Sequence record: OQ708376.1
Source: Escherichia phage vB_EcoM_CRJP21
Strand: one strand, 5' to 3'
Length of the DNA stretch: 64,000 bases
Shown here: piece after piece, positions 34,785-52,441 of the stretch
Numbering within the stretch: position 1 is the first letter of the stretch
Layout: each line of letters opens with the position of its first letter
Position numbers and translations under genes: made by a program
Notes under the pieces: generated by a model
Databases searched by the model: none
Told to the model about the DNA's origin: nothing
The model's input: the letters and a program-made list of their open reading frames with translations, nothing else

Positions 34785-35007
34785 AGAACCAGAAACAATG
34801 AGTCCATATACGATGAAAGGTTTTGAATTCATGATGGATTCGATTTTGAAGAGTTCGTGTTTAGTACACAATCCTGAGCGTGCAACAGTGAGGGAATATC
34901 AGGACAATGCATTACAGCGTGTAATGAATATGTACAGGAATACGAGTCGCAAGCTTTGTGCGTTGAAAAGGATTGAAGAAATCAAGGTTTCTAGGCTGAA
35001 TAAATAG
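34771..35007 (+). CDS. hypothetical protein (78 aa)
   Basis: track ORF. Confidence 0.45.
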   Translation: MITFEEPETMSPYTMKGFEFMMDSILKSSCLVHNPERATVREYQDNALQRVMNMYRNTSRKLCALKRIEEIKVSRLNK

Positions 35008-35205
35008 AGACGTTTCATTTTGACAGGCCGCAGGGGGGTCAAAAAAATTTCCGCTGAAAAACATGCTAAGGTATATGTTTAATATAAAGTTTTATATTGT
35101 GTTTTTCAGAGTACAGTTCATGTTTCCTTAAACAAAAAAAATACCCCGCCACCGAACGTGCTCCTTATATTGGAGTTTACCTTATTAATTAAAGTTGAGG
35201 ATTAC

Positions 35206-35583
35206 ATGGAAATAAAATATAATCAATATTGTGTAAGGACATGGATGTACACGGGTGAGTTAGTTACGCACTGTAACTTATACAAAGGTGATTTAAACTA
35301 CGCCAGGGACAAGATTTTAAAGTACTGGAATGCTGACTTTTATTTGATGGATTTTAGTACTGGGTTTAGGGGTAAAGCAACCGAGATGTTGGACTATACA
35401 GTACTTGATGATGCTGCACTGTTTCAGGAGGCATTAGTATTTGACAAGAAGTACATCTGTACATTAGAAGAGATGATTGAATTACAGCGTAGAATTAAAT
35501 GTATTCACAGGGAATGTATAGATATCTGGTGCAGTACTGGTGAAGATGATTTTTGTAATCATTTCAATCTAGGGGAAGTGTGA
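35206..35583 (+). CDS. family-2 protein (subfamily B)
   Basis: core AALFQEALVFDKKY; RBS GAGGA. Confidence 0.6.
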   Translation: MEIKYNQYCVRTWMYTGELVTHCNLYKGDLNYARDKILKYWNADFYLMDFSTGFRGKATEMLDYTVLDDAALFQEALVFDKKYICTLEEMIELQRRIKCIHRECIDIWCSTGEDDFCNHFNLGEV

Positions 35584-35744
35584 TGGAATTTGATTTTTTA
35601 ATATCAGTACATACGGTCAAGGGTGCACCTCAGTACCTTTGTAATTTAAACAAAGGTGATTTGATTATGGATACAGATACAGAGGCTGTATACAGTTCTA
35701 ATATTCTGTACAAATTCAGTACTAATCTGAAGGAGATTTTATGA
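35583..35744 (+). pseudogene. truncated family-2 paralog (53 aa N-terminal fragment)
   Basis: MEFDFLISVHT..CNLNKGDL matches N-terminus of 36112 gene but lacks core. Confidence 0.5.
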
Positions 35745-36112
35745 AAAAAGAAATTAGAATTCAATTCGGTATGAGGAAAAAAGAGGTCATCTGTACACTG
35801 AATCATGCGGTCGTGGAAAGCCTTGGTGGTGCATTACAAAAATTCTCCCATTTTGTTCTTGTACTATATGAAAATGGGTCTTTTAAAATCTTCACATATG
35901 ATGATTCAAAAAATTACCGTAATGATTTTGTAAATCTGACAGTACTGTCAGAAGAGGAATTCTTTCAGGAAAGTACTGTCTGGAATTTACCAGGAGCACC
36001 AATTGAATACGTCCGTGCTACACAGGCAGAAATGATCAAAGTAATGCAGAACTATCCAGAAGATTATATGACTAAGTTTCCTGAATCTATTTATGTAGAG
36101 GTTGAGTACTGA
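35741..36112 (+). CDS. family-2 protein
   Basis: core EEFFQESTVWN. Confidence 0.6.
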   Translation: MKKEIRIQFGMRKKEVICTLNHAVVESLGGALQKFSHFVLVLYENGSFKIFTYDDSKNYRNDFVNLTVLSEEEFFQESTVWNLPGAPIEYVRATQAEMIKVMQNYPEDYMTKFPESIYVEVEY

Positions 36113-36468
36113 TGGAATTTGATTTTTTAATATCAGTACATACTTTCAAGCACAGTTATCAGTACTTTTGTAATTTAAACAAAGGTGATTTAATGCACAG
36201 TGCAAATGAGTATATTCATTACACTCAGGGTAAATTTACATTCATTGATTACAGTTCATTACAGTATCCACACCAAGATATGCCGGACTATACATTAATG
36301 GATACCGCAGAACTATTCCAAGAATCATTAGTATTTGATAAGAAGTACTTGTGTACATTTGAAGAAGTTATTGCAATACAAAATGAAATGAAAGAGTATG
36401 CTGCTTTGCATAAACCCAATGCAAGTATTAATCAAGAATACAAATTCAATTTAGGAATTCAAGAATGA
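36112..36468 (+). CDS. family-2 protein (subfamily B)
   Basis: core AELFQESLVFDKKY. Confidence 0.6.
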   Translation: MEFDFLISVHTFKHSYQYFCNLNKGDLMHSANEYIHYTQGKFTFIDYSSLQYPHQDMPDYTLMDTAELFQESLVFDKKYLCTFEEVIAIQNEMKEYAALHKPNASINQEYKFNLGIQE

Positions 36469-36824
36469 CATATGATTATTCTATGTACTATTATAAGTTA
36501 CCTAAAGGATGGGACTTGTGCTGTAATCTTATTAAGGGCGACTCGGAACATGAGTTGAGTTTATATATGCATTACAAAGATTCTTGTTTTAAATTTATTC
36601 ATGTATCACATGACGACTATGACTATGAATCTGAGAGTCTTATAGATTATACAGTACTGGACGATGGTGAACTATTTCAGGCTGCATTAGTGTTTGATAA
36701 GAATAAGTACTCCTGTACATTTGAAGAAATGGTTTCTTTGCAAAATGAAATGAAGAGATTTGAAAAAGAAAACGTATTTAATCCATCCCCATCAAGAACG
36801 AATAATTATTATTTCAATATATGA
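36465..36824 (+). CDS. family-2 protein (subfamily B)
   Basis: core GELFQAALVFDKNKY. Confidence 0.6.
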   Translation: MTYDYSMYYYKLPKGWDLCCNLIKGDSEHELSLYMHYKDSCFKFIHVSHDDYDYESESLIDYTVLDDGELFQAALVFDKNKYSCTFEEMVSLQNEMKRFEKENVFNPSPSRTNNYYFNI

Positions 36825-36833
36825 GATTATAAA

Positions 36834-37328
36834 ATGACATTACAGAGTTCATTGGAAAAAGCAAAGAAGATTCATGAGTACATGAATATGGCAAAAGAAG
36901 GTTCAGTTTACGGTGTTTTCAAAGACACAAGTACTCAATATTATGTGCCGGATAACCTCCTTTATAATGACTGCTCAGATACAGAAACGTGCGTACTGGA
37001 TACAGAAACATGCATACTAGATACCGACCCTAATGATTATGAATGCTTCATTAATATGCATAATGAGTACATGGTCTATATTAATGATGCAGATATTACC
37101 ATATACAGTACTGACAGCGATTCCGATGACATTATAATTCCGAGTGAAGTACTAGAAGGTCCGTGGGATAGTGAAGAGTATTACTTCCAACAAAGTACTG
37201 TATACGATGATGAAGTACTTGAAGTATTAGTTATTATGTGGTACTTTAAAAGTATTGGTTCTGGGAACTTCTATTTCGATTACAGATACGTAACGAAAAC
37301 TGTAGATAACGGTATTAACAGGGGTTGA
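36834..37328 (+). CDS. family-2 protein (subfamily A)
   Basis: MTLQSSLEKAKKIHEY..., core EEYYFQQSTVYD...VIMWYFKS. Confidence 0.65.
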   Translation: MTLQSSLEKAKKIHEYMNMAKEGSVYGVFKDTSTQYYVPDNLLYNDCSDTETCVLDTETCILDTDPNDYECFINMHNEYMVYINDADITIYSTDSDSDDIIIPSEVLEGPWDSEEYYFQQSTVYDDEVLEVLVIMWYFKSIGSGNFYFDYRYVTKTVDNGINRG

Positions 37329-37329
37329 A

Positions 37330-37800
37330 ATGAGTTTAGAAAGAGCATTAGAGATTGCGAAGTTAATTGATTTATGCAGCAAAGAAATTGTAGCAAATTG
37401 TCTCAATGGATATCTATTCAAGGAAGGTAAATCTTATTGTCGAATGAGATACGATGACAGTAGTGAGTACATTCACATGTACGATGAAAACTTAGATTCT
37501 TCTGAAACAACACTCAATGGGTGTGATGTTAATTTGGAAGATAATTACATGTACTTCTGTCGTGATGCTGATATTTTAATACAAGATTCTGACATTCTAA
37601 CTGGTGGTGAAGAGAAACATCTTCCGTATTCAGTACTGGATAATGACTGGGGAAGTGAAGAGTACTACTTCCAGCAGAATACTATCTACGAGGAAGATGT
37701 ACTTGACAAGCTTGTCATTCTGTGGTACTTTAATAATACAGATTGTCCTAGCTTCTATTTGGACTTGGATCTACTACGAGTTATTAAAGAGGATATATGA
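37330..37800 (+). CDS. family-2 protein (subfamily A)
   Basis: core EEYYFQQNTIYE...VILWYF. Confidence 0.65.
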   Translation: MSLERALEIAKLIDLCSKEIVANCLNGYLFKEGKSYCRMRYDDSSEYIHMYDENLDSSETTLNGCDVNLEDNYMYFCRDADILIQDSDILTGGEEKHLPYSVLDNDWGSEEYYFQQNTIYEEDVLDKLVILWYFNNTDCPSFYLDLDLLRVIKEDI

Positions 37801-38240: not shown

Positions 38241-38728
38241 TGTCATTACAAAGTGCATTGAAAGAAGCAAAGAAGATTCATGAGTACATGATTATGGTAC
38301 AGGAAGGTTCAGTACCAGGTGTATATAAAACATCTGATACTGAATTTTTTGTAAAAGACCGTGACGATTATGACGAGTCCGAGATATGTGCAGAAACATT
38401 AGTACTGCACACTGATACTGGTGACAGTGATAACTGTGAATATCATATGTACAATCAGTACATTAGTTATTGCCGTAATGAAGATATTACCATCTACAAC
38501 ACAGATAGTGATGCTGATGACACTATCATTCCTTATTCAGTACTGGAAGGACCGTGGGATAGTGAAGAATATTACTTCCAGAATAGTACGTTGTACAATG
38601 AAGAAGAATTAGATGTTATTGTAATTATGTGGTATTTCAAAAGTATTGACTCCAGTAGTTTCTATTTTGATTATGAATATGTAGAGAATACTGTAGGAGA
38701 AGGTAATGTCATTACAAAGTGCTCTTGA
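38240..38728 (+). CDS. family-2 protein (subfamily A)
   Basis: core EEYYFQNSTLYN...VIMWYFKS. Confidence 0.65.
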   Translation: MSLQSALKEAKKIHEYMIMVQEGSVPGVYKTSDTEFFVKDRDDYDESEICAETLVLHTDTGDSDNCEYHMYNQYISYCRNEDITIYNTDSDADDTIIPYSVLEGPWDSEEYYFQNSTLYNEEELDVIVIMWYFKSIDSSSFYFDYEYVENTVGEGNVITKCS

Positions 38729-39158
38729 AAAAGCAAAAGAACTACATGGATACTTTGACGATATAAAGGCAGGAAAGTTCAAAGAAGTGTACAAAGCCGA
38801 GAACGGCAACTACTACAAGGATGAAATGTATAATAACTCCGTTGGTGTAAGGGTTATTCTTGGGTTGAATTCCAATAGTCCTATATCGTTTTCTGAATAC
38901 AATAGAGATGCAGAATTTATTAGTTATGTTGAAAATGGTAGCATTCGTTTTATTAATCGCAAAAAACCATTAATTTTGAATTATGAAGTACTGGAAGGTC
39001 CGTGGGATAGTGAAGAGTATTACTTCCAAAACAGTACTGTTTACGATGATGAAGTACTTGAAGCATTAGTTATTATGTGGTACTTAAAGAGTGTTAACTG
39101 TCCTCGATTTTATTTGGATTTCGAAGAACTTCGTAAAGATCCAGAAGGTATAGAATGA
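38706..39158 (+). CDS. family-2 protein (subfamily A)
   Basis: core EEYYFQNSTVYD...VIMWYLKS. Confidence 0.65.
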   Translation: MSLQSALEKAKELHGYFDDIKAGKFKEVYKAENGNYYKDEMYNNSVGVRVILGLNSNSPISFSEYNRDAEFISYVENGSIRFINRKKPLILNYEVLEGPWDSEEYYFQNSTVYDDEVLEALVIMWYLKSVNCPRFYLDFEELRKDPEGIE

Positions 39159-39469
39159 AAAACTTATTCAGTGTTCAGTACGTTCCTGGTGAAATTAGTT
39201 TATTGTATCTGTTTGATCATGATAATTCATTATTACTAGTAGTAAAGAAATGCCAAGCTAGTTCGTTTGTTGAATACATTCACGATAGTGAATATATACC
39301 TGATTTTTTAGAGTGTGATTATTACGATGAACATGAATCATTTATTTTCCAGGAATCGCTCGTATGGGATAAATCGATCAACTTCTTTACGTTAATTGAA
39401 TTACAAAAGCAGGTGAAGTATCATTGGAATTACTTAATCACACAGGATTACATTGAGATAGAAATATAA
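39155..39469 (+). CDS. family-2 protein
   Basis: core SFIFQESLVWD. Confidence 0.55.
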   Translation: MKNLFSVQYVPGEISLLYLFDHDNSLLLVVKKCQASSFVEYIHDSEYIPDFLECDYYDEHESFIFQESLVWDKSINFFTLIELQKQVKYHWNYLITQDYIEIEI

Positions 39470-39777
39470 TGACTAAAAATGAATTTGATTCACTTTGTAC
39501 GGTTTATAATTCATTGACAGAAATACCTGACTTTATTAATTACATTTCAGCTTTAAATCAAATTATGCATAGTTTTGAACAATCGTTTGAAGAGAAATAT
39601 GCTGGTAGAAAAGTTCTATGTCATATGTCAATGTACTTAGGAGATGGTGAGCCTTACACTACAAGTACTACATGTGAAATAAAAAAATATAATATATTAT
39701 TGGGGACAATAGAATTCACAGTATCCAATGGTGGTAGTTATATGTACTTTAGAGATGGAGTGGTTGAATTATTATGA
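39469..39777 (+). CDS. hypothetical protein (102 aa)
   Basis: track ORF; no family motif. Confidence 0.45.
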   Translation: MTKNEFDSLCTVYNSLTEIPDFINYISALNQIMHSFEQSFEEKYAGRKVLCHMSMYLGDGEPYTTSTTCEIKKYNILLGTIEFTVSNGGSYMYFRDGVVELL

Positions 39778-40223
39778 GTTACGAAAGTGCAATCAAGAAA
39801 GCAAATGATATTCTACGCGTCGTTAAATTCTTCAAAGAAAATCCTGAATACTTAGCTGATGAAAACCATGATCACGATGAGAGATTGAGACGAAAAATTG
39901 TCGCTTTATTTGACACTAATGCGGATAATTATAGTCTAATTGAGTTAGCATACGATTATATTTCATTGAACCGAAACGGCAATATAGTTAATATAGAAAG
40001 ACATGCAACTGAAGAATCTTTTAAAATTTCAGATATTTTATCCCTGAGTACTGAAGAAGGGTACTTCCAGGGTAGTACTGTTTATGAACAAGGGACACTT
40101 GACAATCTATGCACATTCAGTGTAATATATCAGAAATCTGTACTAGATGTATTTTATCTTGACACTGCTGAACTGGATACACTAACCAATTTTGTTACTA
40201 CTGAAGAGGCTACATTCGAGTGA
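39774..40223 (+). CDS. family-2 protein
   Basis: core EEGYFQGSTVYE. Confidence 0.6.
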   Translation: MSYESAIKKANDILRVVKFFKENPEYLADENHDHDERLRRKIVALFDTNADNYSLIELAYDYISLNRNGNIVNIERHATEESFKISDILSLSTEEGYFQGSTVYEQGTLDNLCTFSVIYQKSVLDVFYLDTAELDTLTNFVTTEEATFE

Positions 40224-40756
40224 TGAAAGTTAACATCAATGACTTTGATGCATTACAAGATTTATCAAAAAAGATTCGCACCATTGTACCAGTACTCAAA
40301 AAATGCAGTACTGGTTTAATCGATCCTAGTACTGTTGTTAATGAGAAGTACAATTTTCATTATGTATTACAGGGTACTGGGGCATTCCAGAAGTGTGAGG
40401 TGCGTGAGACACACGTAATTGATACATCATTGTTTTCTATTGGTGCACCTGTGTCGAATAATACTATTTTCCTAGACAACGCTGGAAATATTCAACAATT
40501 AACATTTAAGAAAAGGAAAAAGAACAATAACATTGGTGTGTATGCGATGAAGTGGGGTCAACCTGATTTGAAGCGTGAAATTCACATCCCTAAGTACAAT
40601 TACAATGCATTTGACGAACAGTGTTTTCAACTATCGTGTACTGACCCTGACTATGCTATCATTCAGTTCTATATGGAATTGCAGATAGCATTTAACAGTA
40701 ATTTGTATATTAACTTATTGGCGATGAACATCGATGAAGTATTCAAAAACATTTAA
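40220..40756 (+). CDS. family-2 protein (variant)
   Basis: core EQCFQLSCTD. Confidence 0.5.
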   Translation: MMKVNINDFDALQDLSKKIRTIVPVLKKCSTGLIDPSTVVNEKYNFHYVLQGTGAFQKCEVRETHVIDTSLFSIGAPVSNNTIFLDNAGNIQQLTFKKRKKNNNIGVYAMKWGQPDLKREIHIPKYNYNAFDEQCFQLSCTDPDYAIIQFYMELQIAFNSNLYINLLAMNIDEVFKNI

Positions 40757-40952
40757 TCGAATTGAATACATGAGAACTGTGAGTGCAGTGTGGGACATAT
40801 GGTTCACTACTAAACCAAAAATGGATTACCATGACTTTAAGCTCTTGTTCTTCGTTGGCTCTAACAAACAGGATGTTGCAATGAAGGGTTATATTCAGCA
40901 CTTACAGGAACTAATCCAGAAGAGAATATATGAAAATAATAGACCAAAATGA
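40734..40952 (+). CDS. family-1-like small protein (outlying copy)
   Basis: core VGSNKQDVAM. Confidence 0.45.
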   Translation: MKYSKTFNRIEYMRTVSAVWDIWFTTKPKMDYHDFKLLFFVGSNKQDVAMKGYIQHLQELIQKRIYENNRPK

Positions 40953-41121
40953 CATTGCTAAACTATTCAATATATATTCTACTAGAATGATGCAAACAGA
41001 CTCATATAGTACTGAATTCAAAGAGTTGAAAGTACTGATGTACTTGGGAACCCAATATCAGGAACAAGTTATTTTGGAATATATTAATTCGCTGAAGAAG
41101 GATATCCGTTATGTACGATGA
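40930..41121 (+). CDS. family-1 small protein (outlying copy)
   Basis: core LGTQYQEQVI. Confidence 0.5.
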   Translation: MKIIDQNDIAKLFNIYSTRMMQTDSYSTEFKELKVLMYLGTQYQEQVILEYINSLKKDIRYVR

Positions 41122-41671
41122 TTTAGATCTTGCGTTTGAACGTATGGTAATTTTAATGCAATGTGCAGAAATGCATGAAACAATCCGTCGCACCAAAGGG
41201 ATTGAATATACAAGTAAACTATTCTCATACGAAAGTCGTCGAGGGATGGATCATTTTTACTGCACTGATTGTTCAAAGTTTTCAGTACTGAAATATTATC
41301 ATCCTACTGTTTCCAATAATAGTTTAATATCCACATATGACGGTGATCTGTTTAGTGTAATGTATGACACATTACATCCATCAATTTCAATCTATAAAGA
41401 TTGCGATAGTAGTTTATCGTATATAATTGAAGATTACTTATCTCCTAATACTGAAGAGAATATTTTTCAGAACAGTGTGTTGCATGATGAATTAAGTATA
41501 AAATGCATCTATATGTTCAATAAGTTAAAAGAGTACGCCGATAATAATTACTTAATTGATAAGTTAGCAGTATTGTCTGTTTCCGTTTTTAATACAAATG
41601 ACATTGATATGAAATACTATAATGAGATTTGTAAAGTACATCATATGTATAAGGAACTATTATGTCAATAA
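41111..41671 (+). CDS. family-2 protein
   Basis: core ENIFQNSVLHD. Confidence 0.55.
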   Translation: MYDDLDLAFERMVILMQCAEMHETIRRTKGIEYTSKLFSYESRRGMDHFYCTDCSKFSVLKYYHPTVSNNSLISTYDGDLFSVMYDTLHPSISIYKDCDSSLSYIIEDYLSPNTEENIFQNSVLHDELSIKCIYMFNKLKEYADNNYLIDKLAVLSVSVFNTNDIDMKYYNEICKVHHMYKELLCQ

Positions 41672-42264
41672 ATGCAAATAAATGTTGTAGTGCAGATGTG
41701 CATTTGTTTTTTAAGAAATTAGCAAATGATATTATATATATGCAGGAAATGATTTATCACAAACGAGCGGATTTAGAAAAAGCATTAGTACAGTTCTCAT
41801 TTATGCTTGATGGTGATATATTTCTAGAGAGTGATGCATTGCGAATAGTATTAGACAAAAATGCTAAAAGATTTTTATTTCATATAGATAATAAATTATG
41901 TTCCTCCGTATGTCGTACTTTTTATAATCGTGATTCGGACTTATATCAATTCCTTTATGCTAAAGGTGCAGTAGAAGCATCATATGGTGATGGTTATGCC
42001 CTAGGAAATAGTATTCCATTTATGAAATCATTTAAAATAGAACACATCAGTACTGATGAAGATGCAATGTTCACAAATGATATAACTATGGGACGTGAAG
42101 ATGCAATGCGATATATTACAAATTCTATGCATACATTCTTTCAACGATCAGAATTTGATAATGTATATATATCAAATGTAAATATTTTCACTGACCTGTG
42201 TCAGTACTTGAGAAGTGTTTGTGATTTTGATGAAAGCTATTGTAAGCTTTATACTGAGGTATAA
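41662..42264 (+). CDS. hypothetical protein (possibly divergent family-2)
   Basis: track ORF; weak motif. Confidence 0.45.
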   Translation: MSINANKCCSADVHLFFKKLANDIIYMQEMIYHKRADLEKALVQFSFMLDGDIFLESDALRIVLDKNAKRFLFHIDNKLCSSVCRTFYNRDSDLYQFLYAKGAVEASYGDGYALGNSIPFMKSFKIEHISTDEDAMFTNDITMGREDAMRYITNSMHTFFQRSEFDNVYISNVNIFTDLCQYLRSVCDFDESYCKLYTEV

Positions 42265-42269
42265 AACAA

Positions 42270-42632
42270 ATGAACACATTAAGTATTACATACTATACAA
42301 CTAAAAAATTAGTTACTTGTTTAATATCATTGAAGACAAACCATGATGATATGTTTGATATGGCGGCATATGAATTAGAATTATCAGAAGATGGCTTCAA
42401 GAGCTATGAAGTATATAGCTATGTTCGTGAAGATGTAATTGACACTACACTAATGCAAGAGGATGAGTTATTCCAAGAAAGTTTAGTATGGGATAATAAG
42501 TACGATTGTAACTTTGATTTCTTATGTTTAATCCAGAAAGAAATGAAAAGAATCTTTGATAATTATCCAGTGAAGAGATTGAGTACTGGACCGGAGCAGT
42601 ACAGGAGAATTTTATTCCGTTATGAAGACTGA
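42270..42632 (+). CDS. family-2 protein (subfamily B)
   Basis: core DELFQESLVWDNKY. Confidence 0.6.
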   Translation: MNTLSITYYTTKKLVTCLISLKTNHDDMFDMAAYELELSEDGFKSYEVYSYVREDVIDTTLMQEDELFQESLVWDNKYDCNFDFLCLIQKEMKRIFDNYPVKRLSTGPEQYRRILFRYED

Positions 42633-42957
42633 ATTAGTGAAAGTAATGTACGCTACTCATATTAAACTACTACTTGTGAAATTTGATTATAATAAAAAAC
42701 ATAATGATTTCTATACTTTAATTCGTGATGAAAATACATTCTCCTTGCGATGCAACAATATACCGTTGAAGATAAATGATTTTACTTCACTTGACGAGGG
42801 TGAATTATTTCAAGAATCATTAGTTTTTAATAGTAATATAAAAATTGATATAGAAGTTATTAAAAAATACCAGATTTTATTGAACAAAATTATGAATTGT
42901 TATCCATGTGAAATAGGAGGTCATATGCAGTTCAAATCAAAAATGTATGAATTATGA
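42622..42957 (+). CDS. family-2 protein (subfamily B)
   Basis: core GELFQESLVFN. Confidence 0.55.
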   Translation: MKTELVKVMYATHIKLLLVKFDYNKKHNDFYTLIRDENTFSLRCNNIPLKINDFTSLDEGELFQESLVFNSNIKIDIEVIKKYQILLNKIMNCYPCEIGGHMQFKSKMYEL

Positions 42958-42964
42958 GGTTTAT

Positions 42965-43501
42965 ATGTTAGATGAAAAAATGAACAATGGAACACAATAT
43001 AATCATCTTAAGTTGGATACATTCGAATCAGCTATCAGTACTGCACAAGATATAATTGATATTATCAAGTTCATTAAAGAAAATAAGTTCAAATGTTTGA
43101 AAATACTAAATCGTTCAATGTACCGTGATAACAATATTCATGTATCAGTACGTAGACCGAAAGATAAAGAAAGTGGGAGAGATTTCTATAACAACAGTGA
43201 GCAGTTCGAATGTGAATATGATCCAGAATTCAGAGGCGGTTTCATGTGTTACAGTATAAAGGATACCTCACACATTGAGATACGTTCATCGAAAGGTGGC
43301 ATACGTACATTAGAGTTCATTGATATAGTTTTAAATCAGGAATACTACTTTCAACTATCATTATTGTTTCCTGCATACGATTTAGGAGTTCTATTCATGT
43401 ATAAGTACTTTTATGAGCACTGGAATGAAGACTTCTATCTGGACTTAGAAGATTACCAATTAGTTTGGAAAGAAATGGTAGAACTTCGCAATCCCTCTTG
43501 A
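42965..43501 (+). CDS. family-2 protein
   Basis: core QEYYFQLSLLF; ATG after GAGG. Confidence 0.55.
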   Translation: MLDEKMNNGTQYNHLKLDTFESAISTAQDIIDIIKFIKENKFKCLKILNRSMYRDNNIHVSVRRPKDKESGRDFYNNSEQFECEYDPEFRGGFMCYSIKDTSHIEIRSSKGGIRTLEFIDIVLNQEYYFQLSLLFPAYDLGVLFMYKYFYEHWNEDFYLDLEDYQLVWKEMVELRNPS

Positions 43502-43518
43502 CACCCACCGATTCTTTG

Positions 43519-43527
43519 TGATATAAT
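43519..43527 (+). promoter_or_regulatory. extended -10 promoter element (TGaTATAAT) followed by leader hairpin 43528-43550
   Basis: no clear -35. Confidence 0.4.
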
Positions 43528-43560
43528 CCCTTTATATTAATTGTAAAGGGTTATAACACA

Positions 43561-44037
43561 ATGTCCAAAGACCTATCATTTAGCAATGCACAAAAAATAG
43601 CAAAAGACATTATCAGGGTTTATAAATTCCTTGCGAATGTTACTGAAGATTTTTCCGTGGGGGAACATAAAGTTATTAAACGAAATGGATACCTTTCATT
43701 TATGGATGGGTTACTCTATAGTTCAGATGAATCAACTTGTAGCATTAGAGTACTTGATGAAGTACCAAGTGGTGATTTTATTTCATACCATTTTCCAAGT
43801 TCAGATAATTTCAAATACTACAATCATCTTCTTATAAATGAAGCATTTAATACGATTGTAATTAACACTGAAGAAGAGTTCTTCCAGTACAGTACTGTGT
43901 ATCCAGAGAGGATTGTTTTCAGTTCAGTGATTTTAACAGCCCTTAAAAATGAACTAAATTCCGATAGTGATCATTTCTACTTGGACCTGAACAATGTCGA
44001 TTGTATTATTGAGTACCTGGAGAAAAATGGTTTATGA
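43561..44037 (+). CDS. family-2 protein
   Basis: core EEFFQYSTVY. Confidence 0.6.
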   Translation: MSKDLSFSNAQKIAKDIIRVYKFLANVTEDFSVGEHKVIKRNGYLSFMDGLLYSSDESTCSIRVLDEVPSGDFISYHFPSSDNFKYYNHLLINEAFNTIVINTEEEFFQYSTVYPERIVFSSVILTALKNELNSDSDHFYLDLNNVDCIIEYLEKNGL

Positions 44038-44519
44038 TTACTACAGAATATGATTACTATGGTGTTTTAGAATTTACAGAAAATATCTATCGCATTGCAA
44101 AGGAGTTCAGAAGTCCTAAGCCTTTTGGTGGAATGCCTTTTGGTGGTATGTTTCAATACGATGAGTTCAGTTCATCTAAAGGAAGACTAGCATTTACTAA
44201 TGGTAGAGGTAATCAAATCTACGCGGAGTACTTTGATGATAATGACTTTCATTACAAAGCCGAATACATTTCATATTGCCCTGGGTCTGATTTGAAGATT
44301 AATATTGATACATTTAGAGAAGCAGTATTTGTTCCGTATAATGATTTAGTCTTCATGTCAGAGGAAATGTACTTTCAGGGTTCTTGTATTCATGATGTAA
44401 AAGTACTTAATGCTATGTTATTTTATGGTGCACTACTTAATCATTACAAATACAATCAACGATTCTTTTTAGATTTAGCAGTCTACTATAAATGCGTGGA
44501 TTATTTGAATGCAAAATAA
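44034..44519 (+). CDS. family-2 protein
   Basis: core EEMYFQGSCIHD. Confidence 0.6.
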   Translation: MITTEYDYYGVLEFTENIYRIAKEFRSPKPFGGMPFGGMFQYDEFSSSKGRLAFTNGRGNQIYAEYFDDNDFHYKAEYISYCPGSDLKINIDTFREAVFVPYNDLVFMSEEMYFQGSCIHDVKVLNAMLFYGALLNHYKYNQRFFLDLAVYYKCVDYLNAK

Positions 44520-44871
44520 GAAAACAATTCAGTACATGACGGATGGCAATGAATGCTTTGCTTCAAGATATGAATTCAACAAGAACCATTTCGTAACCTA
44601 TATCCCTGAATATAATCAGTTTTATCTACAGATTTACCAAAATGATTCATATATGAATGAGATATATTCTGAAATAAAAATCCCGGATTATAGTACTTTA
44701 TCAGAAGAGGAATTGTTTCAGCAGAGCACTATCAGTACTGAAGATGTGTATGAAATAATGGAATACCAGAAGGTACTTAAATATTTCCATGAAGTTCAGG
44801 ATATACAAATGGATAGTGTTAAAGCGTGGAATTATAACACATACGAGGTAAATTATGTTCGAAATGATTAA
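44509..44871 (+). CDS. family-2 protein
   Basis: core EELFQQSTIS. Confidence 0.55.
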   Translation: MQNKKTIQYMTDGNECFASRYEFNKNHFVTYIPEYNQFYLQIYQNDSYMNEIYSEIKIPDYSTLSEEELFQQSTISTEDVYEIMEYQKVLKYFHEVQDIQMDSVKAWNYNTYEVNYVRND

Positions 44872-45268
44872 AATTATGCAACGATGTATTGTAGACCAAC
44901 ACGGGATATATGGATATCGTTTAAGTGCTCCTATTGACAAAAATAAAACAACCTATGTAAGCTATAATGCTGTACAAGGATTTGATATATTCATTGATGC
45001 CAACAATAAAATCAAACAAGCTAAGGATGTGTCTATAATGACCCCTGACGAGCTATTTCAGTACAGCTTAGTTCTGCCTACCTGTATTGATTTACAACGT
45101 CTAGGAGCTATACAGAAGGTTTTACGCGAACATAAAGTACAACCCAATAAAGTCACACACATTCCAGAAACAATCTTCAAAACCATAGAAGTAGAAACTC
45201 CTGATTATATGTTAAGTGATGATGAGTACTACGAGAAACACTTCCCTGGTAAAGTTTGGAGAGACTAA
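44855..45268 (+). CDS. family-2 protein
   Basis: core DELFQYSLVL. Confidence 0.55.
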   Translation: MFEMIKIMQRCIVDQHGIYGYRLSAPIDKNKTTYVSYNAVQGFDIFIDANNKIKQAKDVSIMTPDELFQYSLVLPTCIDLQRLGAIQKVLREHKVQPNKVTHIPETIFKTIEVETPDYMLSDDEYYEKHFPGKVWRD

Positions 45269-45750
45269 TGAACCGAAAGTACAGAGAAACTATGAAGTTC
45301 GCTAAGGAGTGTTTAGAGACAGTTGATTTCATTTTCGATAACAAAGACTCACTGGGTCATCACTTCGTAATTACAAAGAAAGAAGATAAGAGATACAAGT
45401 GTGAAAGATTAGGATACAGTATTGAGTTCTCCTTAATGATTGATGGAATGATAAACTCCTTATATGAATGTGGTAAGACTGATTACCTTTCATTTAGATC
45501 ATGGAGTGAAGGTATCATGTTCTTGAGAACAAATGGAGTTTTATATCCGTTTCTTGATGATTTATCAGAAGAAAGTTACTTTCAAAATAGTTTAATTTAC
45601 ACAGAAAAAGAACTCAAGATGCTATTCATTATGTCGTACTTTAAAAAGTACTGCAAATTTAATACATTATCTTTTGAGATTTCTGCAATGAAAGTATTCA
45701 TTAAAAATGTAAAAGAATTAAAGAGGGCTTTTAATGTACATAGAAAATGA
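45256..45750 (+). CDS. family-2 protein
   Basis: core ESYFQNSLIY. Confidence 0.6.
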   Translation: MERLMNRKYRETMKFAKECLETVDFIFDNKDSLGHHFVITKKEDKRYKCERLGYSIEFSLMIDGMINSLYECGKTDYLSFRSWSEGIMFLRTNGVLYPFLDDLSEESYFQNSLIYTEKELKMLFIMSYFKKYCKFNTLSFEISAMKVFIKNVKELKRAFNVHRK

Positions 45751-46276
45751 GAATGTAAAATGCATTACTGACATTTGTATAAAATTAATGAAAATTTTCA
45801 TTAACCCAAAATACAAGACTCGTTCTTTACATCATAATATTGATGAGCATTGTACCATTAATATACTAGGTAGTATTCTTGATGTAAAATATGATGGTAA
45901 AATGTTATTCGGTATAAGAGAAGAGAAGATAGATGATGCATTCTTTTCTTCTAAAGATAAATTTGAACCTTCTGATTATAAAGTGATTATTCGTGATGAT
46001 AGCATCTATATTAGTAGTGATTATTCAAATTACTTCGATAAAATATACACTGAAAACGTTGACTACCATTATGAAATGATTGATTTACCAGTAACAGACA
46101 TTGATATGGAGAGAATCAAATTTTCATTATCAGATAATGAGTACTTAGGTATACAAACATATTATTCACTACAAGGAAAGATTCCACCTGCTATGTATAT
46201 AAGGATTGAGATTGGTAATGTATTCAATGATAAGGTTATATCAATTGCTGATAAAATATTGAGGGTTGAATTATGA
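45734..46276 (+). CDS. hypothetical protein (possibly divergent family-2)
   Basis: track ORF; degenerate motif. Confidence 0.45.
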   Translation: MYIENENVKCITDICIKLMKIFINPKYKTRSLHHNIDEHCTINILGSILDVKYDGKMLFGIREEKIDDAFFSSKDKFEPSDYKVIIRDDSIYISSDYSNYFDKIYTENVDYHYEMIDLPVTDIDMERIKFSLSDNEYLGIQTYYSLQGKIPPAMYIRIEIGNVFNDKVISIADKILRVEL

Positions 46277-46836
46277 ATATCAATGATTACCAATTTCATA
46301 GGCTTGAATTTCGTCATTGTGTTGCATTTGCAAAAACATTGATGTGCATCATTGACACTCTTTCATCCAAACAATTTCGTAAGGATAATGATTTATTTCT
46401 GAAAAAAGGTCGTGTAACATCATCCGATATCAGTGTTGAACTATTTGTTGATATCAGTGTTGATACCGGAGACAGTACAAGGGTTGGTTGTATAGGTCAT
46501 ATTGGTACACATTGCTTCACATGGAATCCAAATACAAGTCAAGTACGAATTGATTATAGAAATTCACGTTGGGTTGATCTTAGTACTGAATCCGATTTAG
46601 AATCAGCTATGTTCCAGCTAAGTTTAATTCACAATCCTAATGAACTTCTTTACATTATTACTTTCAGTTATCTGTTACAAAACTACGATAATCCATCAGG
46701 GTTTTTCATAGAATCGGATATAGAAGAAATTATGGAAGAGTTTCCTAGTTTAAAGGATATTCTGGAAGAAAAAGATTTCTATGAAGACTTCAGAGATTTA
46801 TACGACATGCACTTGGAGTTATTTAAGAATGGATAA
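46273..46836 (+). CDS. family-2 protein
   Basis: core SAMFQLSLIHN. Confidence 0.55.
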   Translation: MNINDYQFHRLEFRHCVAFAKTLMCIIDTLSSKQFRKDNDLFLKKGRVTSSDISVELFVDISVDTGDSTRVGCIGHIGTHCFTWNPNTSQVRIDYRNSRWVDLSTESDLESAMFQLSLIHNPNELLYIITFSYLLQNYDNPSGFFIESDIEEIMEEFPSLKDILEEKDFYEDFRDLYDMHLELFKNG

Positions 46837-47347
46837 AGATGATATTCTAATTAGACTAATTAAGAGTTTAATAAAGTTCTCAAATAATGATGTCGATACA
46901 TACAAAGTAGGGGATATTGAATTCAAATCATTTGGTATGTACGGTGAGGACAAAACATATTATGCGTCAATGAAATTTCAAGATTTTCACGAGATGTTAA
47001 TATCGTTATCATATGAAGATGTTGATCCAAGATGGAGTTCCAGTATTTCACTATCGAGAATGGTAATTCGTAGTAAGCATCGTTACATTTCGTCAAAGAA
47101 TACTCCTAACTTGATTAATATTGTGTTGAATGAAAATACCAATCCTATATCTAAACTTGATATCGTACCGTTAACCGATGAAGTACTTTTTCAATTGAGT
47201 ACCATTTGTGATGAAGATGTGATATCATGTATGAAAATTTATGAGAAGGTTGGGAGTGATATTCCCATGAACTATTACCTAACTATAGATGGAACGTACC
47301 TTCGAGATGAGGTTCTAGCGTACATTGACAGTGTTTTACCAAAATAA
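46829..47347 (+). CDS. family-2 protein
   Basis: core EVLFQLSTICD; internal ATG chosen. Confidence 0.55.
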   Translation: MDKDDILIRLIKSLIKFSNNDVDTYKVGDIEFKSFGMYGEDKTYYASMKFQDFHEMLISLSYEDVDPRWSSSISLSRMVIRSKHRYISSKNTPNLINIVLNENTNPISKLDIVPLTDEVLFQLSTICDEDVISCMKIYEKVGSDIPMNYYLTIDGTYLRDEVLAYIDSVLPK

Positions 47348-47370
47348 AGACCCGTATGGGTCTTTTTGTG
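47346..47370 (+). terminator. rho-independent terminator
   Basis: AAAGACCC-gtat-GGGTCTTT + TTT. Confidence 0.7.
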
Positions 47371-47378
47371 TTTATGGC

Positions 47379-47407
47379 TTTACAAGAGCATTCAGGTGTG
47401 TTATACT
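47379..47407 (+). promoter_or_regulatory. internal promoter (TTTACA, 17 bp, TATACT)
   Basis: consensus-like boxes after terminator. Confidence 0.5.
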
Positions 47408-47434
47408 TGATTTTAAATAGAGTTGGAGGAATCT

Positions 47435-48001
47435 ATGAGTACTGAATTAATTAAAGAAGTCACATTACTTCTGAAGCATTGTTTTAAGTTCATTCCTGAT
47501 ACTGGTTCCCGCCAGTACATTAAAGTCAATGAGAAATATAACATCAATATCCTTGCATCCGAAACTGCAAGCAGTTATGCTAACATTGAGTTGGATTCTG
47601 AAGAAAAATATACAGTATTACAAATCATATCAGATGTACAACGTAAACAAGATTATCGTTCTTCATTTTACAACGATCATCTGTGTGTTTGCTCAAACTT
47701 CAGTGAGAATAAAATTGTGTATAAGAATTTATACACACATGAAGTGATTGATACATATAATTATAAAATTTCATCTGATGAATACAATGTGCTAATGTTC
47801 AACGCAAACCTTTTGTATGATGCCAGTACTGTACGCTGTTTAGAGTTAGCATATAAAATTCCAAAGATCATGGAAAGAAAAGATTTGATTCACTTTAAAA
47901 CTATTTTAAAATACAGTACAAAAGAATTAGAGGATTTAGTACAGGCTCTTAAGAATTTCATTAATGAACATGTACCTGTTAAATTCGAGGATGCACAATG
48001 A
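47435..48001 (+). CDS. hypothetical protein (possibly divergent family-2)
   Basis: ATG after GGAGG; degenerate motif. Confidence 0.5.
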   Translation: MSTELIKEVTLLLKHCFKFIPDTGSRQYIKVNEKYNINILASETASSYANIELDSEEKYTVLQIISDVQRKQDYRSSFYNDHLCVCSNFSENKIVYKNLYTHEVIDTYNYKISSDEYNVLMFNANLLYDASTVRCLELAYKIPKIMERKDLIHFKTILKYSTKELEDLVQALKNFINEHVPVKFEDAQ

Positions 48002-48582
48002 ACCATATCAGAACTAAAATTTTGAGACTCATGCATGACATTGCAGAACTTTCAGAGATTCATGACATTACAGAAATTGTTGAATTTGATGATTATCGAC
48101 TGAAAATTGAAAACAAATCCAAACATCGTTTTGGATCAGTTCAGTTGGATGTATATAAAACTTATGAATTTTCTAAAAAAATTAAAAGTTCATGGGATAC
48201 GATTACTATGTACATTCGCACATCCAGAAATCGTGAACGTATTGGTTCTATTTCTTCTAATATGGTATTTGCGAATGCATTACATGAAAAAATGAATAAA
48301 ATTGTAGAATCTGATTTCAGTGAAGATGATGGTTTTATTGGGTTGGATGTTCCACCAGAATTAGACCAAAGTGAAGATATTCGAGATGCATTCATTTTCC
48401 AGAAATCATTGTTGGACAATTACAAAGAATTCGAGTACTTAATGCTTTGTTACGATACTGCAAAAGTTCTTGATTGTGGTGAACTAGTTATGTACAATGA
48501 TTTTATCAATTACAAGACTGATGTTCTGAATACACTACTTCAAAATATAGAATCGGTTAAGGAAAAATATGAACGCTTATAG
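47998..48582 (+). CDS. family-2 protein
   Basis: core AFIFQKSLLDN. Confidence 0.55.
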   Translation: MNHIRTKILRLMHDIAELSEIHDITEIVEFDDYRLKIENKSKHRFGSVQLDVYKTYEFSKKIKSSWDTITMYIRTSRNRERIGSISSNMVFANALHEKMNKIVESDFSEDDGFIGLDVPPELDQSEDIRDAFIFQKSLLDNYKEFEYLMLCYDTAKVLDCGELVMYNDFINYKTDVLNTLLQNIESVKEKYERL

Positions 48583-49147
48583 TTATATGACAGAACGCCA
48601 TCAGTTATTATATGATATCAGTACAAAAATGTTATCAATTGTTAGTAGTGCAAAAGAAATTGAAAAACAATACCTCATCCGTGATGTAGCAATTTCATCT
48701 AAATGTTGGTCCAATGAATATTACGATCACGGTATTCTTACTATTTCTGGGGCTAGAAATATTTGTATTGTAAAAAATAAAAATAAAAGTAATGAAGAGT
48801 GTGAGATTATAACCGATATACAAATTAAGGATGATGGAAGTTTTTCACACCACCCATTCCATATTAGTACTATTGGTGTTTTATATAATATTAAAGTACT
48901 ATTCGGTGATGAAGAGTATGTGTTAAAAGCCATCAATCCAGATTCAAGTACAGTTGAAGAAGAACTGTTCCAGATGAGCACTGTTATACCTGAAGAGGTT
49001 CTTAGTACTGTTATTTTTTGTAGTTTAATTTATCATGAATACAAAAAGTACCAGTTCGATTTCCACATGTTAGGAACATACATCTTCAATAATTTGAATG
49101 TAGATCGTTTAACAGCATTAAATGCAGCAATGGATAAGGTGCTATAA
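48569..49147 (+). CDS. family-2 protein
   Basis: core EELFQMSTVI. Confidence 0.55.
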   Translation: MNAYSYMTERHQLLYDISTKMLSIVSSAKEIEKQYLIRDVAISSKCWSNEYYDHGILTISGARNICIVKNKNKSNEECEIITDIQIKDDGSFSHHPFHISTIGVLYNIKVLFGDEEYVLKAINPDSSTVEEELFQMSTVIPEEVLSTVIFCSLIYHEYKKYQFDFHMLGTYIFNNLNVDRLTALNAAMDKVL

Positions 49148-49575
49148 TGACAAGAGATGATTGTTTGTACATATGGGATATAATTGAAACTACACTTTCA
49201 AATCCAGAAAATTATAAAACAAAAAAAAGACAACGACACAAAATATGGATAGATTTGTTCGTTGAGGGCATACACGCAGTGACTATCTGGGATTCACCGA
49301 GGGCATCATCATCTACTCTGTTGGACAATGAATGCATTGATTGCATTAATTCCACTTTTCATCTCTACGGTACTACAATTTTTGGTACATTTCTGGATAT
49401 TGAAAGTAAAGATGATATTGATTCACTTGCGTTACAATACCAAGTACTATATAATACTAAATTAATTTACGATTTAGTACTAGCTTCTTATGTGTATAAA
49501 TTAATGATGAAATATAATCATATTTCTGTTTCAGTTTATACTAAGGATATTCTTTCATTAAGAGACAAAACATGA
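49147..49575 (+). CDS. hypothetical protein (possibly divergent family-2)
   Basis: LALQYQVLYN variant. Confidence 0.45.
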   Translation: MTRDDCLYIWDIIETTLSNPENYKTKKRQRHKIWIDLFVEGIHAVTIWDSPRASSSTLLDNECIDCINSTFHLYGTTIFGTFLDIESKDDIDSLALQYQVLYNTKLIYDLVLASYVYKLMMKYNHISVSVYTKDILSLRDKT

Positions 49576-50081
49576 GTTTATTAAATGCACGCGAATTGGT
49601 TGAGATGTATGAGATTTTGTCTTCATATAAAAATTCTCATGGAGATGTGATTCTCGACAAAAAGTTCCATGTCAGTGTTGAACATATATCAAATATAGAT
49701 ATGATTTCTTTGGTGGAAAGTAATAAGTCAGGTCTTGAACGCGATATCATGCGTTTGATTTATATTCCCAAACCATCATATACTAATGATAGTTCAATTA
49801 GTAATGAGACATTCATGTATAGTCCCGGTACGGATTCTACTATAGTATCGCTGTCCAATAAATCAATGGATACTTTCCAATTCATATATACCAGTACTGA
49901 TAACATTGAAGAAATTGAATTTCAAAACAATACATTAAGTCCATGTAGTAGTGTTATAACCTTTATGTCATATCTATGGTCAACTAAAACAAGTGCTGTT
50001 GTATATAGTTCAAATTATACACAAGATAGTATTGTTGAATCATATAAAGTTCTAAAGGAATACTATGAAAATAACAAATGA
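49572..50081 (+). CDS. family-2 protein
   Basis: core EIEFQNNTLS. Confidence 0.5.
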   Translation: MSLLNARELVEMYEILSSYKNSHGDVILDKKFHVSVEHISNIDMISLVESNKSGLERDIMRLIYIPKPSYTNDSSISNETFMYSPGTDSTIVSLSNKSMDTFQFIYTSTDNIEEIEFQNNTLSPCSSVITFMSYLWSTKTSAVVYSSNYTQDSIVESYKVLKEYYENNK

Positions 50082-50646
50082 TTTTATTAAAAGTGTAGTA
50101 CACCCTATGCTTAGTATTATGAAAAAAATACAGAATCTACCGGAAGATAACGATTACAAGTTTAATCGTTTTGATTCAGATGTGTTTTGTATTGAAATTG
50201 AAATTAATAACAATCGCAATTTACATTTAAAATTCAAAGAATCTTCGAGTCCGTACTACAACTTTGATATGAATTTTAAAATAGATACTGACATTGAAGA
50301 AAACATAATATCAAATCATACTAGCAAAAATGGTTTTATGCATAGAACTACTATGTACAATAATAAAAATAGTATTATATCTAAATGGAATCAACAATTC
50401 ACTAAAATTTGTGAAATTGAATATAATGATTTTGGTGAAGAACATTACTTTCAGTTAAGTACAATTCATGAACTTCCACCATATGATTATGTTAAAACAT
50501 GGTTTGATATTCATAATATAATTGATGATGCAATCAAACTTCCATTTGGTGTGTCAATATCATATACTGCTCCTAAAACATTTGTTTTTACTGAAGATAT
50601 GATTATGAAAAAGATATGGGCAATCATCCCACTTATGATGGATTAA
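50065..50646 (+). CDS. family-2 protein
   Basis: core EHYFQLSTIHE. Confidence 0.55.
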   Translation: MKITNDFIKSVVHPMLSIMKKIQNLPEDNDYKFNRFDSDVFCIEIEINNNRNLHLKFKESSSPYYNFDMNFKIDTDIEENIISNHTSKNGFMHRTTMYNNKNSIISKWNQQFTKICEIEYNDFGEEHYFQLSTIHELPPYDYVKTWFDIHNIIDDAIKLPFGVSISYTAPKTFVFTEDMIMKKIWAIIPLMMD

Positions 50647-50660
50647 ATTTGTACCAGGGG

Positions 50661-50689
50661 TTGACTCTGGTTTTTTTGTATGATACATT
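50661..50689 (+). promoter_or_regulatory. candidate internal promoter (TTGACT + weak -10)
   Basis: follows short hairpin and T-run; RBS AAGGAG before 50708. Confidence 0.35.
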
Positions 50690-50707
50690 GTTCTCAAGGA
50701 GAATTTT

Positions 50708-51259
50708 ATGAACTACAATCATGATCTTTTTACATTATGTGCATCCAAATGTGTTGAAGGATGGGCAGATAAAATCAATACCATAATTCATCGATATCTC
50801 GTCTTTAGTTCCCGTGCACGAAGTGAGGGGGCTATGGATTTCAAATATACACTATCTATTGATGGTGTAACTATCCATGCAGACGAAGAACGTCTGAACA
50901 TTAATTTGTATGATTCCTGTGTATTTGCTATTCACCAAAAGATGGGGAAAGGATGGGGTTGTAATAACATTAACTCCAAAGCTATCTTTTGGGTTGGTCA
51001 CCATCAGACAGTACTTGATCCTTCAATCAAATCTAATCTTTTATCCGATAATATGGTTTATGATTTATTGTACTCCGAAGAACAACATTTTCAGTTAAGT
51101 ACATTGCATGTTCTGGCACAGTACGAGGATTGTTACAAAACATTAGAACTATGCCATTCCCTTGAACTTAAAGATAAATTAATACAAGTTTACCCTTCAT
51201 TCTTTCATGAAGAAGTCCAAAGTACACTAGATCATATTTTATATGGATACGATAAATGA
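50708..51259 (+). CDS. family-2 protein
   Basis: core EQHFQLSTLH. Confidence 0.6.
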   Translation: MNYNHDLFTLCASKCVEGWADKINTIIHRYLVFSSRARSEGAMDFKYTLSIDGVTIHADEERLNINLYDSCVFAIHQKMGKGWGCNNINSKAIFWVGHHQTVLDPSIKSNLLSDNMVYDLLYSEEQHFQLSTLHVLAQYEDCYKTLELCHSLELKDKLIQVYPSFFHEEVQSTLDHILYGYDK

Positions 51260-51858
51260 GAAAAAGTTATCAAGAAGCTATTGACTTAATTCGTGAAGTT
51301 ATCAAGGTGGCTCCTGCTGCTATTGAGTTCAAGAAGTCCATATACAAGAAGTATGGGTCAATGTCGAGTATGTGCTTTCAAAAGAAACGTAGAGCATTCA
51401 CTACCCAGTACTGGAATGATTCTATCATCCTGAGCAATGAGACTCAGCGTATTTTAACACTAGAATCTGAACCTAATGAGTACGGGGAAGGAAACATTTG
51501 TGTACCTGATTATGATGAAATTAACTTCAACTGCGGTGATTTTGAAACAACATTATTACTTCATGAGGGTTATCCAGAAGGTGATGTATTAGCTGAATAC
51601 AATCCAAAAACTAAAATTCTCAAAAGAGGAATTCAGTTCACTATTAATAACAAAGATGATGTTGAAGCAGCACTGATGCAACTGAGTACAAGTGAACCTA
51701 TCACTATTAGTGTAGAAGAGTTATGGGGAATTATTTCAGTACTCAATGAGTGCTACAAAGTAAAATCATTGCGTAAACACAGCATTATATTACATACCAA
51801 TATGGCAAATATAAAATGTAAGCACATTCAAGAAATGGTGGTTCCAGATGGACTTTAA
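51256..51858 (+). CDS. family-2 protein (variant)
   Basis: core AALMQLSTSE. Confidence 0.5.
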   Translation: MRKSYQEAIDLIREVIKVAPAAIEFKKSIYKKYGSMSSMCFQKKRRAFTTQYWNDSIILSNETQRILTLESEPNEYGEGNICVPDYDEINFNCGDFETTLLLHEGYPEGDVLAEYNPKTKILKRGIQFTINNKDDVEAALMQLSTSEPITISVEELWGIISVLNECYKVKSLRKHSIILHTNMANIKCKHIQEMVVPDGL

Positions 51859-52432
51859 AGAAATTGAAAGTAAATTAAAGTACTTCAAAGATATCAAACT
51901 TCTTTGGAAAAAGTATAAAGTTGATTACAATTTCAGTGATGATGAGACAATAAAATACATTGAGATTAATATCAAAATCAAGTTCAAGAATAATAATTAT
52001 GGTGAAGTAACCTTAAATCATACTGGTATATCACTCAAGGACTATGATGGTACAACACTCGCATATTTTGACTTCACACCAGAACCAGGTGAAACACTAC
52101 TTAGTGAGATAAATTCCTATGACATGGAAGTGTTCGGCGGGAATCCGTTACTGTTCCGACTTTCTGAAGAGTGGAGTGAAGAGTACTACACTTACAAAGA
52201 TGGTGTAGTACTTGACATTCATGGAGAAGTTGTGAATGACTTGGAAGAACGTTTGTTCCAAGAATTGTGTGTTTCAAATACTTCATATGCATACAATCAT
52301 ATCCTTGACATGTTTGATTTATATAGTAAAATAGATGCTGAAATGAAGGCACATGGTATTCATTACCTTACAATTAACGACTATGCTCAACTCGAAACCG
52401 CTGTGAAAGCATTGACTAAAGTACTGAAATAG
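51848..52432 (+). CDS. family-2 protein (variant)
   Basis: core ERLFQELCVS. Confidence 0.5.
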   Translation: MDFKEIESKLKYFKDIKLLWKKYKVDYNFSDDETIKYIEINIKIKFKNNNYGEVTLNHTGISLKDYDGTTLAYFDFTPEPGETLLSEINSYDMEVFGGNPLLFRLSEEWSEEYYTYKDGVVLDIHGEVVNDLEERLFQELCVSNTSYAYNHILDMFDLYSKIDAEMKAHGIHYLTINDYAQLETAVKALTKVLK

Positions 52433-52441
52433 GAATGAAAT

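Follow-up and report, generated by a model that had tools for sequence, protein, structure and literature searches.

A chimeric 53-amino-acid open reading frame as a probable recombination scar in the paralog array of a 121Q-like jumbo coliphage

Introduction

The mosaic junctions of tailed-phage genomes reportedly arise, according to the model of Hendrix and Hatfull, by illegitimate recombination at or near gene boundaries, while a modular shuffling mediated by PeSLs is said to have been described for the hyperplastic regions of T4-type phages by Arbiol et al. in 2010. With regard to the former model, the locus studied here shows clear likeness, i.e., a foreign segment joined at 5- and 7-nt microhomologies, one joint located exactly at a stop/start overlap, and apparent propagation among relatives by homologous recombination through the flanks. 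On the other hand, donor and recipient are in this case two paralog arrays of the same superfamily from closely related jumbo phages, and the locus additionally carries an 82-86-bp target duplication together with an in-frame chimeric ORF of two parents, features that to our knowledge have seldom been documented. As in the T4-type hyperplastic regions, the phages concerned are large virulent myoviruses with recombination-based replication, in which conserved neighbours enclose small genes of unknown function that are gained or lost; unlike in PeSL-mediated shuffling, the insert is not flanked by a conserved stem-loop or promoter cassette. A direct repeat of the target flanking inserted DNA is also reminiscent of the target-site duplications of transposable elements, but these measure 2-14 bp instead of 82-86 bp, and the insert has neither terminal inverted repeats nor a transposase, integrase or homing endonuclease. 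An autonomous mobile element was rejected, as the insert encodes nothing but a single protein (gene C, phrog_13866, no Pfam match) and is not bounded by inverted repeats.

The genomic region and gene superfamily concerned have been treated before. According to Hua et al. (2017, mBio, PMC5646251), the array of small paralogous genes expanded by tandem duplication, and the same statement was repeated for phage phAPEC6 (PMC7247149). The available portions of both papers deal with the array in general terms, and neither the junction ORF that is the subject of this study (PBI_121Q_366 and homologs) nor a chimeric origin is found in them. Likewise, the virion proteomics paper on phAPEC6 makes no mention of gp444-447. 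Unlike the tandem duplication described in the available portion of PMC5646251, the event proposed here would be the ectopic transfer of a cassette.

The Window and Its Array of Paralogous Genes

The 64,000-nucleotide stretch of DNA that was analysed (termed the window) has a GC content of 34%, carries nearly all of its genes on the plus strand and comes from the genome of an Asteriusvirus (a 121Q/PBECO4/Rak2-like jumbo coliphage). Between positions 34800 and 37400 it shares 97.8% identity with Escherichia phage BF17 and 94-97% with phages G17, SHEFM2K, 121Q, slurp01 and phAPEC6. The core motif EEx[YLF]FQxS (EExYFQxS) recurs in at least 33 ORFs of the window, and stop/start overlaps, 29 of the ATGA and 10 of the TRATG type, constitute the dominant kind of junction in the array.

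The locus is framed by two intact family-2 genes on the plus strand, namely gene A (35206-35583; 125 aa; phrog_15629), ending in a TGATG overlap with the start of the short ORF, and gene D (36112-36468; 118 aa), the 5' end of which is duplicated. The products of genes A, D and E match phrog_15629 from position 1/2 to position 118/121 (E 1e-56 to 1e-60). In phAPEC6, the homolog of gene A (gp447c; L010 307-684, equivalent to window 35206-35583) is annotated as 'amidohydrolase 3', a label that looks spurious; the gene A product has no Pfam match except a sub-threshold one to RINGv (E 0.019) and falls into phrog_15629, a group of unknown function.

A Short ORF That Repeats the 5' End of Gene D

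The short ORF, here designated B', starts with ATG at 35583 on the plus strand and ends with TGA at 35742-35744, thus encoding 53 aa; the program-made ORF list begins the same frame at an upstream GTG (35580), which yields 54 aa. Its N-terminal segment MEFDFLISVH...CNLNKGD is homologous to gene D (22/28 residues, 78.6% over 28 aa; E 2e-12 by tblastn within the window). At the nucleotide level, a direct repeat comprising the stop/start overlap and the first 27 codons of gene D (DR1, 35581-35666, plus strand) aligns without gaps to the 5' end of the intact gene (DR2, 36110-36195, plus strand), with 73 of 86 positions identical; at no other place in the window does ungapped alignment of this 86-mer exceed 43/86. 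The match to the gene D N-terminus reported in the initial annotation is therefore fully borne out, while an alignment with the whole of gene D (36112-36468) reveals similarity in the first 86 nt and none in the remainder. The statement that the ORF stops before the conserved core holds insofar as this core is absent; the frame nevertheless continues after codon 27 for another 26 codons, which stem from a different gene. A chance resemblance or an assembly artefact was dismissed on the basis of the contrast between 73/86 and the background of 43/86 and because the same ORF is present in nine fully read independent genomes.

The similarity between the two repeats is sharp-edged, extending from the TGATG stop/start overlap to ...AAAGGTGATTT, and 11 of the 13 mismatches fall into a single central patch (TVKGAPQYL vs. 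TFKHSYQYF). In BF17-type phages DR1 and DR2 are 97-98% identical, whereas paralogs A, D and E exhibit no nucleotide similarity to each other in the N-terminal region. The variant patch of DR1 looks like allelic variation, since gene D orthologs of different phages vary at the very same β1-β2 turn. This turn, located at residues 12-19 of gene D (36145-36168; 35616-35639 in DR1), is hypervariable among the orthologs (FKHSYQYF, FKNSFQYF, FKGTHQYF, FKNINQYF and also VKGAPQYL), while the remainder of the first 27 codons is nearly invariant among phages. VKGAPQYL occurs in the window and in 121Q, in both cases in the duplicated copy only, and in IMG/VR the DR1 patch (GGTCAAGGGTGCACCTCAGTACC) was encountered solely at 121Q's copy of the locus. 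The window combines this 121Q-type patch with a short tail, a pairing that is absent from every database phage, and no existing record of the exact 53-aa product was found.

The Second Parent and the Two Junctions

The remaining codons of B' (28-53) correspond to the 3' end of a gene resembling A4_364 of phage A4. This gene encodes 192 aa, ends in ...DLIMDVDSAATYSSNVLCKEFQNSKILELLYIADCNILYKFCTHLKEIL followed by its stop, belongs to a different family and has no phrog_15629 match. After codon 27/28 the tail of B' is about 90-93% identical to it in nucleotide sequence, and in tblastn residues 24-69 of the 74-aa 121Q protein gp366 match the C-terminal end of A4_364. The TGA of B' is the native stop of the A4_364-like gene and overlaps the start of gene C (ATGA), in the same way as A4_364 leads into A4_365 through an ATGA overlap in A4. 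Gene C (35741-36112, plus strand; 123 aa; phrog_13866), the cargo of the cassette, shares 93% amino acid and about 95% nucleotide identity with A4_365. The tail of B' and gene C consequently form one unbroken block homologous to A4 364-365 (A4 L005 2007-2521), for which blastn yields 92.6% nucleotide identity with 121Q and about 95% with the other insert-bearing phages.

This A4-like block (35658-36116) is situated between the two copies of the gene D 5' end, and in both the multiple alignment and the raw junctions the homology to A4 begins exactly at GATTTGATTATGG (35658 onward) and ends exactly at TGATGGA. The left junction observed is a 5-nt microhomology, GATTT (35658-35662, plus strand), common to gene D (GGTGATTTAATG) and A4_364 (CAGGATTTGATTATGG); to its left the ORF resembles gene D (AAAGGT|GATTT), with A4 being unrelated. 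The right junction is a 7-nt microhomology, TGATGGA (36110-36116, plus strand), common to the A4_365 stop/A4_366 start and to the A stop/D start of the empty site; to its right the window proceeds with gene D and A4 with A4_366. Stop/start overlaps are intact at all three gene borders, i.e., TGATG at A|B', ATGA at B'|C and TGATG at C|D. TGATGGA was found 14 times in the window, with 11.6 occurrences expected, and is not enriched there, on which ground a quasi-site-specific junction motif was rejected.

The remnant of the A4_364-like gene (35663-35740, plus strand) carries the native Shine-Dalgarno sequence of gene C, AAGGAG (35731-35736), 6 nt before its ATG, which explains why part of the 364-like gene was carried along with the cargo gene. 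Compared to 121Q and A4, the tail in the window has suffered an in-frame deletion of 63 nt at TAAT (35699-35702) between the imperfect 15-nt repeats TAATGTTCTGTGCAA and TAATATTCTGTACAA. 121Q retains these 63 nt and thereby the last 47 codons of the 364-like gene, resulting in the 74-aa form. A split gene or programmed frameshift joining B' and C was also considered and discarded, as gene C is complete by itself, possesses its own Shine-Dalgarno sequence and has an intact ortholog in A4. A hairpin-forming sequence encoded by the CNLNKG motif, CCTTTGT-AATTTAA-ACAAAGG (35634-35658, plus strand), terminates directly 5' to the left breakpoint; speculatively, this hairpin may have served as a pause or template-switch site favouring the switch.

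An Ectopic Copy of an A4-Lineage Allele

Phage A4 is broadly collinear with the window and harbors A4_350, the counterpart of gene D, in syntenic position, with A4_364-366 located downstream at a distance of about 5.3 kb. The window has its own positional orthologs of all three genes on the plus strand 6 kb downstream (41662-42957), and these are highly diverged: the ortholog of A4_364 (41662-42264) shares 25% aa identity over its full length, that of A4_365 (42270-42632) 28% and that of A4_366 (42622-42957) 41%. Given the presence of these diverged orthologs, 35658-36116 is an additional, ectopic and xenolog-like copy of the A4-lineage allele and not a local duplicate. As the identity of conserved collinear blocks between A4 and the window varies from 72 to 96%, the value of about 95% for the cassette lies within the usual span and its identity alone does not prove recent transfer; a recent horizontal transfer from an A4-like phage is accordingly not proven.

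Distribution of Insert-Bearing and Empty Sites

The insert is present in ten database phages, namely 121Q, BF17, G17, SHEFM2K, phAPEC6, Sharanji, Turkey3, ECO103 4-12-1, EC22.5-2 and slurp01. In Sharanji the ORF runs across the record ends, so that this phage is left out of the count of open frames; the short ORF is open in each of the nine insert-bearing phages for which its full length could be read. An empty site was observed in E9.1 and WPEC3, in which gene A is directly followed by gene D (...GGGGAAGTGTGATGGAATTTG...) and neither the short ORF nor gene C exists. For UB, PBECO4, SP27, JP4, the Salmonella SD phages and others, query coverage of 34800-37400 amounts to only 77-82%, and these relatives are absent from the matches to the A4 block.

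In Turkey3 (L006 1501-2030, corresponding to window 35583-36112), the cassette consisting of tail and gene C matches that of the window at 100% identity, although for the neighbouring genes A, D and E this value is no higher than 82-90%; WPEC3, with a similar backbone, has no cassette. Homologous recombination hence seems to transfer the cassette from one backbone to another or to remove it, and its horizontal spread seems to be recent; the two direct repeats should also permit its precise loss. Scans of IMG/VR and JGI metagenomes with gene C returned only 121Q and no further donors or contexts. A search with the A4_364 protein retrieved one A4-like Logan contig with the same 364-365 arrangement as A4, and full-length 364 was found only in A4 and this one Logan metagenome contig.

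Is the Short Product Functional?

An AlphaFold model of gene D computed with 13 family sequences (pLDDT 84, pTM 0.80) predicts strands β1 (residues 5-12) and β2 (15-21), strands β3-β5, helix α1 (65-74) with the invariant FQ motif, helix α2 (83-99) and strand β6. Measured against this predicted fold, B' would retain the β1-β2 hairpin only, i.e., two of six strands and no helices, followed by an unrelated tail; the core DYTxxDxxELFQExLVFDKKY, corresponding to helix α1, and helix α2 are absent. In agreement with this, B' matches merely positions 1-39 of the 121 positions of the phrog_15629 profile (E 2.5e-6) and not the full-length family-2 domain of about 118-125 aa, and it covers just the last 26 codons (47 in 121Q) of A4_364-like genes, which encode 192-200 aa. 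From classical pseudogenes it differs in having no disabling mutation relative to gene D and in using the second parent's own stop. As it keeps the β1-β2 hairpin and lacks the core, the B' product is most likely non-functional as a family member, judging from the modelled fold.

If the short ORF has a role at all, the only plausible one is passive, possibly the delivery of ribosomes to the ATGA overlap and hence translational coupling for gene C. The idea that it is a selected element, either a micro-protein or a leader ORF needed for coupled expression of gene C, can invoke the open frame in all copies read through (nine in the database plus the window), the use of gene D's original ribosome-binding context, the in-frame fusion and the later in-frame deletion, as well as an ATGA overlap with the start of gene C like that at 29 other junctions of the window. 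Open frames, in-frame fusion and in-frame deletion are indeed compatible with weak selection, e.g., for coupling, yet they would also be expected by chance at about 1/9, and the copies are near-identical, so that the intact frame carries little weight. Furthermore, gene C has the strong Shine-Dalgarno sequence of its own, and around its start no significant RNA structure that could mask it was predicted (fold z = -0.16). The length of the product varies (53 vs. 74 aa), five of eight residues of the N-terminal patch differ between alleles, and none of the helices of the parent fold is kept. With regard to substitutions, comparison of the 121Q tail with A4 gave pN/pS of about 0.4 (0.097/0.241), a value based on about 18 substitutions and including the constrained A4 branch, and the tail is thus not clearly neutral; gene C (pN 0.024-0.044, pS about 0.10) evolves more slowly, with counts that are too small to decide. 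Taken together, we regard a selected functional element as quite unlikely. Even less probable, in our view, is a version in which the chimera is under selection as a coupling leader ORF or as a β-hairpin micro-protein interfering with the full-length paralogs, the overlaps acting as in-register joints for cassettes. If this were true, stop/start overlaps would allow single-gene cassettes to be swapped between jumbo-phage arrays while the translation of the operon remained unbroken.

Origin of the Chimera

Probably, the 53-aa ORF is the scar of a microhomology-guided cassette insertion with target duplication and likely non-functional. The order of events and the mechanism that we infer from the observed chimeric anatomy are as follows. 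In an ancestor of the 121Q/BF17-type Asteriusviruses, a segment of an A4-type array would have been joined into the family-2 array by illegitimate recombination, the segment comprising the last ~140 nt of an A4_364-like gene and a complete A4_365-like gene. The left joint would have formed at GATTT in codons 26-27 of gene D and the right joint at TGATGGA, within the stop/start overlap preceding gene D. With the right joint thus placed upstream of the left one in target coordinates, the recombination would have duplicated 82-86 bp of the gene D 5' end. The upstream copy would then start the ORF from the original ribosome-binding context of gene D, and the ORF would consist of 27 gene D codons fused in frame to the 364-like end with its native stop overlapping the ATG of gene C. 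An ancestral 74-aa form, as in 121Q, would later have been reduced to 53 aa by the in-frame loss of 63 nt between short repeats, and the cassette would since have been spread or lost among related phages by homologous recombination through flanks and repeats. Either a twofold template switch or a pair of illegitimate crossovers, occurring in the course of recombination-dependent replication, may account for the event, and a cell coinfected with an A4-like phage is its probable setting.

The initial annotation had regarded the ORF as a truncated, pseudogene-like family-2 paralog, consistent with birth-and-death turnover. Such a tandem duplicate of gene D, decayed in place through a premature stop or internal deletion, could account for the close copy of gene D in the 27 N-terminal codons, would fit an array grown by tandem duplication as stated in the available portion of Hua et al. 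(2017; PMC5646251) and finds a parallel in an independent A/D hybrid gene that points to unequal recombination among paralogs; even the end of the tail, ...YKFSTNLKEIL, superficially resembles gene D's ...YKFNLGIQE. It is, however, highly improbable in view of the tail, which derives from the end of A4_364, a gene whose ortholog the window carries at another place (41662-42264), and runs unbroken into the A4_365-like gene C; there is neither a frameshift nor a nonsense mutation relative to gene D, and the parent switches at a 5-nt microhomology. What remains of the earlier interpretation is that the N-terminal part duplicates a fragment of gene D, that the product is devoid of the family core and that the array is recombinationally dynamic; the ORF did not arise from a complete paralog through a premature stop or decay, and the notion of pseudogene-like decay has to be abandoned in favour of a cassette-insertion junction. 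A further scenario starts from an ancestral order A - D0 - ... - 364 - 365 - D, D0 being an older duplicate of gene D; one illegitimate deletion at GATTT would have joined D0 to the 364 end, and empty sites would have arisen later by recombination between D0' and D. It has the merit that a single illegitimate event makes the chimera, that the empty site could easily be restored through direct repeats of 82-86 bp and that the 365|D junction had to be created in any model. Against it, the postulated arrangement is absent from 50,697 database phage records and the metagenome matches, DR1 and DR2 in BF17-type phages are far closer to each other than are paralogs A, D and E, and in A4 the 364-365 pair resides at a distance of kilobases from the D ortholog and is followed by 366, not by D. 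We consider deletion-fusion unlikely; as neither an insertion intermediate nor a donor-recipient pair was observed directly, it is not formally separable from insertion.

The junction exemplifies commonplace phage mosaicism rather than the decay of a paralog, and it opens no new biological question. Cassette insertion, as favoured here, would provide a base-resolved example of remodelling in the large paralog arrays of Rak2/121Q-like jumbo phages, in which, beyond tandem duplication and decay, arrays would change through ectopic transfer of a one-gene cassette at 5-7-nt microhomologies, an event whose traces would be a duplicated piece of the target, a chimeric ORF and a presence/absence polymorphism. 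The 'hypothetical proteins' annotated at this locus, e.g., PBI_121Q_366, PSLUR01_00268 and G17_00559, are best seen as junction artefacts and not as family members.

Additional Observations on the Array

The A/D hybrid gene mentioned above is located on a 28-kb Logan contig and encodes a protein of 109 aa (P0008), the N-terminal part of which is of the gene A type and the C-terminal part of the gene D type; the crossover lies within the conserved LFQESLVFDKKY core. In this independent case, two paralogs of the same array underwent unequal homologous recombination, with loss of all the sequence between them.

On a larger scale, comparison of window 38687-52442 with A4 L008 26420-43603 revealed about 14-17 kb of array without nucleotide similarity, flanked by blocks that are 75-96% identical. 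Gene order seems to be kept within this stretch at protein identities of only 25-41%, which points either to very rapid divergence or to an exchange of entire modules of the array.

Upstream of gene A, the intergenic region contains a promoter-like TTGACA-17-AAAAAT (35020-35048). Window 35033-35200 is 94.6% identical to A4 (L008 23208-23375), with no detectable nucleotide similarity between window and A4 in the coding sequences on either side, and this conserved regulatory island may act as a recombination anchor for the exchange of modules.
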